Source: Nitrososphaerota archaeon
GTDB lineage: Archaea > Thermoproteota > EX4484-205 > JAAOZP01
Reading direction: 5' to 3'
Length of the DNA stretch: 64,000 bases
NCBI GenBank assembly: GCA_011605725.1
Contig: JAAOZP010000017.1
Span: 64,001-128,000 of the forward strand
Below the pieces are notes generated by a model. The model did not search any database. It had not been told where the DNA came from and saw nothing but the letters and a program-made list of their open reading frames with translations. Numbering within the stretch: the stretch's first letter is position 1; each line of letters starts with the position of its first letter. Both the position numbers and the translations under genes were made by a program. This document shows positions 6,263 through 16,530 of this stretch, piece by piece.

Positions 6263-9200
6263 ATGATTGCGATCTATACCGGACTATGTCCAAGCTGTGG
6301 TGGAGATATTAGTTCAACCAGGCTTGAGAGAGGACTTCCATGCGAAAAATGTTTGCCGAATGAAAGTGTTGAAATCAGTAAAATAGCTTCAGGAAAACTT
6401 AGGGAAATACTGGAAGTCAGGAGGCTTGAGGAGGAGTGGACAAACTTCTTTAAAAAGTTTCTAGGATCCTCACCCTGGAGCCTCCAAGCCTCCTGGGCGA
6501 GAAAAGTTTTTCTTAAAAGATCTTTTGCACTCATAGCGCCTACGGGAGTGGGCAAAACATCTTTCGGAATAAGTATCGCTGCTTTTCTGGCTGAAAAAGG
6601 AAAGAGATCCTACATAATAGTTCCTACGAAAATCCTAGTCGAACAAGTAAAGGAAAAATTGGAGAAAACCGTGGACAGAAATTGGATTATAGCTTTTGGC
6701 GAAATGAACGAGAAAGAGAAGGAGAAAGCTAAGGAAAGGATCCGTAATGGGGACTTCCGAATAATAGTATCGACATCAATGTTCCTATACAAGAACTATG
6801 ATATCATACCTAGACCATTAGATTTTGTCTTCATCGACGATGTGGATTCTTTTCTTAAAACAGCAAAAAACATAGACAAATCATTATACTTAATTAATTT
6901 TGAAAAAGAGGATATTGAAAAGACAATGGAGCTTATAAAAGCGAGAAAACTTCAAGGTGAAGAAGACACTAAGACTTTTTACGAGGAAATTAAAAAGATT
7001 TCTATGAAGGCAAGAGGAGTGATAGTCGTTTCTTCAGCAACTTCAAATCCTCGTAGCAGCAGAATAAGGCTGTATAAGGAACTACTTGGATTTGAAGTGG
7101 GCAAACCTTCCTTCTACATCAGGAATGTGGTTGACGCCTTCTCGTATTCTAAAGAAGAATACGACTTAGTAGACTGGATTAAAAAACTGGGTAAGGGAGG
7201 ACTAGTTTTCGTTTCCTCCGATAAAGGTAAAGAATACGTTAATCACATCGTCCACCTTTTATCGGAAAAAGGTATTAAAGCTCTTTCATACGAAGAACTC
7301 GGAGAAGAAAACATTAGGAAATATGAGAAAGGCGAAATAGATGTTTTAGTCGGCATTGCAAGCTATAAGAATCCGTTGGCACGAGGCATAGATCTACCTC
7401 ATGTAGTTAAATACGCGTTATTCTTCGGCGTTCCAAAGATCGTTATAAGCCTTAAAATCGAGGAAAACGCGATGCATCTTCTTTGGCTTGTTGCTTCAAT
7501 CAGAAGCATTGCATCTAAACATGACTATCTGAAAAAGTTTCTACCGAGAATAGACAGTTGGTTGAGATTTTTGAAACGCTCAACGTCCTTTCTTTCTGAA
7601 GAAGACAGGATTGTCAGTGAAAAAATGAAACTCTATTTAGAACGTATTCGAAGCGAGATAATGGAGTTTTTAGAAGACAGGGAGGTTTCAGAAATCATTG
7701 AGAGGTCAAAGGAGTTATCATTAAGAAGGACGATAGATGGGTTTATACTTACAATTTCAGATGCCACTGCTTATCTCCAAGCGAGTGGAAGGACTTCAAG
7801 ACTGTATGCTCAAGGCTTAACCAAAGGTTTTTCGCTTATACTAATTGATGACGAAAAATCTTTTCATCATCTTCAGAAGAAAGCGAGATGGTTCGATGAG
7901 GAGATAAACTTTGTAGATGTGAACAGTATCAAGTTAGAAAAACTGTTAAAGGAGATTGAAGAAGAAAGGGAAGTAGTGAGGAGAATACTTGAGGACAAGG
8001 CAGGAGGGGAAACACGAGATATTTTGAAACCTGTACTCATTGTCGTAGAGTCGCCGAATAAAGCCAAGACCATAGCAAGTTTCTTCGGTAAACCAATAGC
8101 TAGAGTGCTAAACGGACATAAAGTCTATGAAACCGCCACGGGAGACAACTATCTACTTATAACGGCTTCGCTCGGTCATGTTTTCGACTTGGTTAAAAAT
8201 AAGCATTTCCATGGTGTTCTTATCGATGGCAATAATATAGTACCAGAGTATGAGATTATAGAAGGCAAAGAGAAAATTGTGGAAAGCCTTGTAGAAATAG
8301 GGATGGAGATTGACAGGATTCTAATAGCTACTGACCCAGATACAGAGGGGGAGAAAATTTCGCATGATTTGATGCTTCTTCTGAAACCCTTTGTTAAAGA
8401 CGTGGAACGGATAGAGTTTCACGAGGTTACTAGAAAAGCGATAGTGAAGGCCATAAAAGAACCGAGAAAATTCAATTTGAACATGGTTCAGGCGCAGATC
8501 GTTAGAAGAATTGCAGACAGATGGGTTGGGTTCGAATTATCACAATATTTACAGAAGGTTTTCAATAAGAACTGGCTTTCTGCCGGAAGAGTTCAAACAC
8601 CTGTGTTGGGATGGATAATAGAAAGAGATAACCTTAGCAAGGAGAAAATATTCATAGTATTGGTAACGCTAAAGAAGGATAATAAGATGCTTAGACTGGA
8701 GTTTCCGTTTGAAAATAAAAATGAGGCGGAGAGCTTTTTCGATAGGCTTGAAGAATTAGAATTTAAGGTCGTTGAGGAAAAAGAAGAAACAAGGCTTCCT
8801 CCTCCACCTTATAGAACAGACACCATGCTTAGAGATGCCGGTGATAAACTGAAGTTTAGCCCAACTGAAACCATGCGGCTAGCACAGGATCTTTTCGAAA
8901 TGGGTTACATAACCTACCATAGGACAGACTCAGTAAGGGTTTCTGAAACAGGAATTAGCCTGGCGAAAAAGTATGTAGAAGAAAATTTTTCACCTTCCTA
9001 CTTTCATCCAAGAACATGGAGTAAGGAGGGGGCTCACGAATGCATTAGACCAACTAAGCCTATTGATGTTGAAGATGTTAAGACCATGATGCTTGCAGGC
9101 CAGATAAGAGGCTTAAACAGAGACCATGTTATGCTTTACGATTTGATTTTCAAAAGATTCATAGCAAGTCAGTTAAAGGAATGTAAAGTTAGAGTAGTAA

Positions 9201-15622: not shown

Positions 15623-15635
15623 AAACTTTTTAATA
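15623..15635 (+). promoter_or_regulatory. BRE/TATA-like element upstream of the candidate sRNA
   Basis: AAACTTTTTAATA lies about 25 nt upstream of the box C at 15656. Confidence 0.5.
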
Positions 15636-15651
15636 CAGCATTTTAATGGAT

Positions 15652-15712
15652 CATATCGATGAGGAATGGAGGTGATCTCTGAATAGTGATGAGAAACTCC
15701 ATTCTGACTCGA
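15652..15712 (+). ncRNA. Candidate box C/D small RNA
   Basis: Box C TCGATGA 15656-62, D' CTGA 15679-82, C' GTGATGA 15686-92, D CTGA 15704-07, in canonical order and spacing; intergenic with an upstream TATA. Confidence 0.65.
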
Positions 15713-15714
15713 GT

Positions 15715-16530
15715 TTAAGACGGGTTTCTGAAGGACCGAATTATTTCTTCTCCAAGGCTTCTTGAACACGCGGCTACAACCGGGCTTTTCGAGACGGGCA
15801 GCAGTTTAACATTGAGATCCTCCGCTTCCGCGTTCAACACAACTCCTCCAGCCTCCTTCACTATTAAGAACGCTGCTGCAAAGTCAAGGCTCCTTAGAAA
15901 ACCCCTTAGGTCAACGAAGGCGTCTGCTGCTCCCGATGCGACTAAACATAGTTCAATCGCGTCAGACCCTAATGATCTAACGTGCCTAGCCTTCTCAATT
16001 ATGCTTGACATCCTGCTAACGTAGCCCGGCAGTCTCCCCCGAATGTTCAAGTCAACAGATATCAGAGCCTCCTCGATTCTTCCCACATTTGAAACCCTTA
16101 GTCTATGTCCGTTTAAGAACGCTCCTCGATTCTTCTCAGCATAGTAAAGGTCACCGGTTAAAAGATTGATAACACCGGAGCACACTGTGTCGCTAAGATC
16201 TTCCCCTTCTGCAACCCCTATTGAACAGCTGTAGCACGGGTATCCTCTCGAAGCGTTAACACTCCCGTCAACAGGGTCGACGATTATTAGGGGAGGCCCC
16301 CCGCTTCCAATCTCCACCACCCCTGATTCTTCACTAACTAACGTGGCATCTTTGAAGAAAATTCTTGTTGCCTCGAGAATCATTTCTTCAGCAACCTTAT
16401 CCACCATGAAGGTCTGGTCGCCGTAAGGGTTTATCGCGACTCTCTCACGGATCGAACGCTCATCCATCTCCTTAATCTTTTCAAAACATTTTCTCAACGT
16501 CGTCCTAACGTACTTAAAATACTCGTCCAT
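15715..16530 (-). CDS. Inositol monophosphatase / FBPase class IV (SuhB-like)
   Basis: SEESG, DPVDGSVN, RSLGS, LDFAAA..IVKEAGG. Confidence 0.9.
   Translation of the reverse strand: MDEYFKYVRTTLRKCFEKIKEMDERSIRERVAINPYGDQTFMVDKVAEEMILEATRIFFKDATLVSEESGVVEIGSGGPPLIIVDPVDGSVNASRGYPCYSCSIGVAEGEDLSDTVCSGVINLLTGDLYYAEKNRGAFLNGHRLRVSNVGRIEEALISVDLNIRGRLPGYVSRMSSIIEKARHVRSLGSDAIELCLVASGAADAFVDLRGFLRSLDFAAAFLIVKEAGGVVLNAEAEDLNVKLLPVSKSPVVAACSRSLGEEIIRSFRNPS

Follow-up and report, generated by a model that had tools for sequence, protein, structure and literature searches.

An intergenic stretch of the window, the 64,000 nucleotides of an archaeal contig analyzed here, contains the gene for a box C/D small RNA (sRNA). 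The best explanation, which we regard as quite probable, is that this RNA is a methylation guide whose D' guide is directed at C1533 of 16S ribosomal RNA (rRNA), with a weak or decaying D guide and a stabilizing helix between the two guides. The gene spans approximately 15656 to 15710 on the plus strand in a 2.23-Mb genome whose genus is filed under Ca. Brockarchaeota or as unclassified Thermoproteota. In everything that can be tested it is an archaeal box C/D guide: boxes C, D', C', and D occur in that order, both guides are within 10-14 nt (Table 1), and it shares with archaeal box C/D sRNAs their layout, their guides of 11-13 nt and a location facing the 3' end of a convergent gene (PMC6009581). 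The same genome encodes fibrillarin, Nop5, and L7Ae-family proteins.

Table 1. Features of the sRNA locus, numbered from the first nucleotide of the window.
Feature	Position	Strand	Remark
TATA-like T-rich element, probable promoter	15627..15635	+	promoter function presumed
Box C, ATGAGGA	15659..15665	+	placed by spacing in relatives and pair-type variation with box D
D' guide, 13 nt	15666..15678	+	15668-78 pair with 16S 1529-1539; G15674 is N+5 and faces C1533
Box D', CTGA	15679..15682	+	
Box C', GTGATGA	15686..15692	+	K-loop with D', extended by TCT/AGA pairs
D guide, 11 nt	15693..15703	+	cis pairing with 15665-71; candidate trans target 23S helix 39
Box D, CTGA	15704..15707	+	CCGA in 4 congeners
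Inositol monophosphatase-family (IMPase) gene	15715..16530	-	convergent with the sRNA

A preliminary description of this DNA had located the TATA-like element, box D', the ATA loop between D' and C', box C', the D guide, and box D, all of which stand. Box C, which it had read as TCGATGA at 15656-62, is moved by 3 nt on grounds of spacing and covariation. A pattern scan of species representatives returned 50 matches, 36 archaeal and 14 bacterial, and an RTGA-type box C lies exactly 12-13 nt before D' in 33 of the 36 archaeal matches versus none of the 14 bacterial ones. In the ATGAGGA register, the K-turn pair beside the tandem G.A pairs is G.U in seven genomes, G-C in three (where box D is CCGA), and A-U in three (where box C is ATGAAGA). 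Pairing compatible with a K-turn and K-loop is conserved, and the G.A elements are invariant except in one congener. The new placement gives the D' guide its length of 13 nt.

The T-rich motif lies approximately 25 nt upstream of the sRNA, and homology with five congeners begins at 15623, so that the motif is included. The upstream macro-domain gene has been relocated here to C7:35293-35829, and the motif remained with the sRNA. In relatives the element overlaps the stop codon of that macro-domain gene, and therefore cotranscription of the sRNA is also possible there. Downstream, linkage to the IMPase gene is retained in 15 of 15 genus copies. The RNA folds as a hairpin composed of a K-turn, a 9-bp helix, a 4x2 internal loop, and a K-loop (z = -3.3 for 60 nt and -1.7 for 76 nt), the first two or three pairs of the helix being the K-turn's own. 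The TCT/AGA extension of the K-loop is paired in 100% of alignment cells, at positions that are mostly invariant. Terminal pairs in the K-turn register are present in about half of the congeners, among which the TCGA/TCGA terminal stem of this genome is not conserved.

A strict four-box pattern has one match in the 2.2-Mb genome and none in 30 triplet-shuffled genomes. A loose pattern also finds one, which is not significant given that 0.7-1.2 are expected by chance, and therefore loosely defined boxes alone prove little. None of the Rfam sR families scores at its gathering threshold, the best being sR33 with 19.9 versus 37 bits; all 11 sub-threshold matches are C/D RNAs on the same strand as the sRNA. 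From archaeal box C/D sRNAs in general it differs in its long in-register guide-guide helix. By the patterns used, the host genome (G000) has two confident C/D RNAs. The second (contig C11, 56197, minus strand) carries two guides that each make 10 Watson-Crick pairs with its own 16S rRNA, near 1161 and 1006.

The 3' end of the host 16S rRNA is GGAUCACCUCCUACG. As had been proposed from the window alone, this tail is the likely target of the sRNA: the D' guide pairs with it over 11 bp, of which 10 are Watson-Crick and one is G.U (E. coli numbering, verified against PMC5389701), and no better site exists for this guide among all available rRNA and tRNA of the genome. The N+5 nucleotide is Watson-Crick paired with C1533 (genome C9:85041), the C beside the anti-Shine-Dalgarno (anti-SD) sequence that had been predicted as the methylation site. 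For a random 13-mer, a perfect 10-bp rRNA match over N+5 has p = 0.012. The predicted 16S duplex amounts to -20.4 kcal/mol versus a cost of 16.7 kcal/mol for opening the hairpin at 37 C, and to -11.5 versus 7.5 kcal/mol at 65 C. Furthermore, the guide tracks its target, as three complete genomes with A1539 in 16S have U opposite in the guide. Elsewhere in the same rRNA, helix 45 (L001) has CGUACGGGAACGUGCGG instead of the usual CGUAGGGGAACCUGCGG, a paired change common to the order.

The expectation that the boxes would be conserved in relatives is borne out. The sRNA is single-copy beside the same gene in 14 of 16 congeners, with 12 intact copies and two degenerate ones (G003 and G016); nucleotides 15667-78 are invariant in 13 intact congeners, and the flanks drift. 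Outside the genus, the D' guide occurs in the same register in a patchy set of Thermoproteota, Asgard archaea, and one DPANN genome. The archaeal matches include Sulfolobales, Desulfurococcales, Thermofilaceae, Njordarchaeota, and Heimdallarchaeota; a subsequent scan also recovered Metallosphaera, Acidianus, and an Anstonellales genome. Of the 401 Thermoproteota genomes scanned, 46 are pattern-positive, compared with approximately 20 in a reversed control, and inspection found a C' context in about 35 of the 46. These collection scans miss some genomes, Ignicoccus hospitalis itself being absent from the matches, and the counts are therefore lower bounds. Most Thermoproteota families sampled gave no match to the C1533 guide pattern, which together with the degenerate copies in two congeners indicates that the guide is dispensable. 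The second (D) guides differ from lineage to lineage, and convergence is therefore conceivable.

Several members of the collection have unusual arrangements. L079 (G024 C29:1645 and 2603) has two copies of the sRNA together with its upstream sequence, 958 nt apart, which may be an assembly artefact. Sulfolobaceae-type copies (L108-L114, L196, L199, L203, and L205) consist of C, guide, D', and C', often without a downstream box D, and several directly follow another C/D RNA, as half-RNAs or tandem arrays. L024, L047, L056, and L066 combine the C1533 guide with another guide that matches 16S 908-918, near the central pseudoknot, perfectly over 10-11 bp.

Methylation at this position has been measured in another archaeon. 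Cm1533 was detected in I. hospitalis by RiboMeth-seq and ascribed to "a presently unknown sRNA" (Seistrup et al., PMC5389701). The I. hospitalis sRNA sR305 is expressed (430 in the count column of the table) and has its target entered as "NP" (Dennis et al. 2015, PMC4644070 supplement). We find that sR305 carries the same D' guide, 12 nt after box C and with N+5 on C1533, and that this guide is complementary over 11 nt to the printed I. hospitalis 16S tail. The guide is followed by a degenerate D' box, and as both D' and C' of sR305 are degenerate, its N+5 register rests on spacing. Four sR305 orthologues, one of them in I. pacificus, have kept the D' guide and diverged in the D guide. From these sequence comparisons we infer that sR305 is the missing Cm1533 guide of I. 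hospitalis, and that the sRNA described here does the same job. Unlike the latter, sR305 has degenerate D'/C' boxes, an unrelated and fast-drifting D guide, and no cis helix, and either common descent or convergence could account for the shared guide core. In the literature searched, which took in few subscription papers, none names sR305 or a guide for C1533. At the equivalent position, no Cm appears in the lists compiled from cryo-EM for S. solfataricus, P. abyssi, and T. kodakarensis, a comparison of methyl lists only.

For the D guide, the candidate site is in helix 39 of 23S rRNA (C9:86283-91), where N+5 would be a G at C9:86287, approximately E. coli 945. The same site is found in seven of the nine congeners whose rRNA was scanned, plus an eighth, as 9-11 bp with one to three G.U pairs; against shuffles it gives p values of 0.06-0.8 and is not significant in any single genome. 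Every intact D-guide variant in the genus fits this fixed site, the changes all being transitions, for which the baseline is 60%. No D-guide site of at least 8 bp was found in tRNAs, 16S, or the pre-rRNA leader, and domain V of the host 23S is unassembled. Helix 39 is a probable second target, as judged from pairing. A site in 23S domain V was rejected as it fits only G008, whose 23S differs there from its congeners. The peptidyl-transferase region of the G008 23S (L137) is unlike that of all congeners, and G010 has a second, foreign-looking rRNA operon (L136) that is probably contamination.

In the mechanism that we favor, L7Ae would bind the C/D K-turn and the C'/D' K-loop of the approximately 55-nt sRNA and recruit Nop5-fibrillarin. 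The D' guide would then pair with 16S nucleotides 1529-1539 during maturation of the small subunit and direct 2'-O-methylation to C1533, at the 5' edge of the anti-SD tail. The D guide would act as a weak or decaying second guide for the helix-39 G of 23S. It would in addition, within this order, pair with the first nucleotides of the D' guide and so extend the K-turn helix; the resulting guide-guide helix would probably stabilize the free RNA and be displaced by the 16S tail.

The guide-guide helix calls for closer consideration, as it had been proposed to make the RNA a self-masking guide. Nucleotides 15664-71 are indeed the reverse complement of 15697-704 and the intramolecular helix is real, with two of its pairs assigned to the C/D K-turn by the new placement of box C. 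Across the alignment 96.6% of helix cells are paired; the in-register helix measures 5-7 bp in every intact congener examined and reaches 8 bp, with two double-sided differences, in a second family from the same order. Among arbitrary rRNA-antisense guides, only 0.02-0.3% produce a 7-bp in-register run. In addition, the first guide position, which is outside the 16S duplex, shows an A-U/G-C switch that needs two events on the tree of the neighboring IMPase gene, and the second family combines a perfect cis helix with disrupted helix-39 pairing. These features favor a reading in which the D guide has been repurposed as a cis mask, giving a conformationally gated C/D RNP: because the D' guide contains a perfect Shine-Dalgarno (SD) sequence, the second guide would have been converted into a mask. 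We consider this rather unlikely. Its supposed aims, keeping an SD-bearing RNA off the mature 30S, limiting it to pre-16S, or gating it by temperature, are likewise doubtful.

Several results stand against such a mask. Only two families, both of this order, have the in-register helix, and 37 other members of the sRNA family examined have zero to four in-register pairs; the other C/D RNA of the host genome, a control with n = 1, has three. The free energy of the helix is equaled by 12% of arbitrary rRNA-antisense guides. A U-to-C change at D-guide position -6, seen in four separate lineages, removes a pair in cis but strengthens the pairing with 23S, and no D-guide change in the genus conflicts with the fixed 23S site. 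At both 37 and 65 C the helix is predicted to be opened by the 16S tail, so that the mature 30S is unlikely to be excluded by energy alone. Finally, the independent events are few and are counted on a tree from a neighboring gene. In L006, L007, L009, and L118, representing three separate lineages, the helix-breaking U-to-C is accompanied by a box D of CCGA, which possibly compensates for the lost stability. Out-of-register masks in other members would favor masking, and here L044 (a Desulfurococcaceae MAG, approximately 7440-7530) is the strongest candidate among the members examined: its second guide nearly duplicates the 16S tail and base-pairs over the full length of the anti-SD guide (-14.6 kcal/mol), with no box D evident. 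Overall, the cis helix and the 23S pairing both seem to constrain the D guide. A structural role for the helix is plausible and a regulatory one is unproven, which leaves of the self-masking proposal the helix with its double-sided changes.

Less probable still, and in our view improbable, is that the RNA acts without methylating, either as a chaperone or processing RNA for the 16S 3' end or as an anti-SD blocker that represses initiation. The guide does span the entire anti-SD, it belongs to the sole strictly canonical four-box RNA found in the genome, and a delaying role has been proposed for N. equitans sR13 (PMC5389701). However, the junction of 16S and spacer, predicted to read CACCUCCAUUCC, is actually CACCUCCUACG, and complementarity ends at C1539; as the pairing stops short of the spacer, the argument for pre-rRNA trimming through spacer pairing is removed. 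For either guide, no match of at least 8 bp to the leader or the processing stem was found (D-guide scan), and the predicted methyl is present in I. hospitalis. Moreover, the N+5 register is fixed across phyla, and a pure blocker would need no such register. U3 is a C/D RNA that acts near the ends of small-subunit rRNA. The same holds for SNORD13/U13 (PMC9670809). Both work through long antisense arms at the 5' end and direct no 2'-O-methylation, whereas the sRNA described here is without a long antisense arm or spacer pairing and keeps the N+5 register, which sets it apart from U3 and U13.

That the locus is instead an L7Ae-gated ribosome-binding site for a tiny open reading frame (15686-15718), as had also been suggested, is hardly credible, since, despite a strong SD 10-13 nt before GTG/ATG and the known autoregulation of L7Ae through a K-turn beside an SD (PMC5539422), the start codons are box C' itself, the frame ranges from 5 to more than 49 codons and is shifted in 5 of 13 congeners, giving two frames, and its longer versions run antisense into the IMPase gene.

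With the methylation guide as the preferred reading, the closest characterized case is N. equitans sR13, a C/D sRNA one of whose guides complements the anti-SD tail and whose methyl has been confirmed by MS and RiboMeth-seq (PMC4644070, PMC5389701). In sR13 the guide precedes box D, the target is A1534 (Am1534), and the partner guide is directed at A1408, whereas here the guide precedes D', the target is C1533, and the partner is different; the sRNA is therefore outside the sR13 family. What emerges is an uncatalogued group of guides for C1533, next to the anti-SD, that spans phyla; within it, sR305 is a concrete candidate for the guide that Seistrup et al. lacked for their measured methylation. 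If the cis helix is functional, it would represent a gated C/D RNP, none of which is described in the papers searched. The copies in cultured relatives from Ignicoccus, Metallosphaera, and Acidianus offer a way to test the role of Cm1533 in 30S maturation or initiation.
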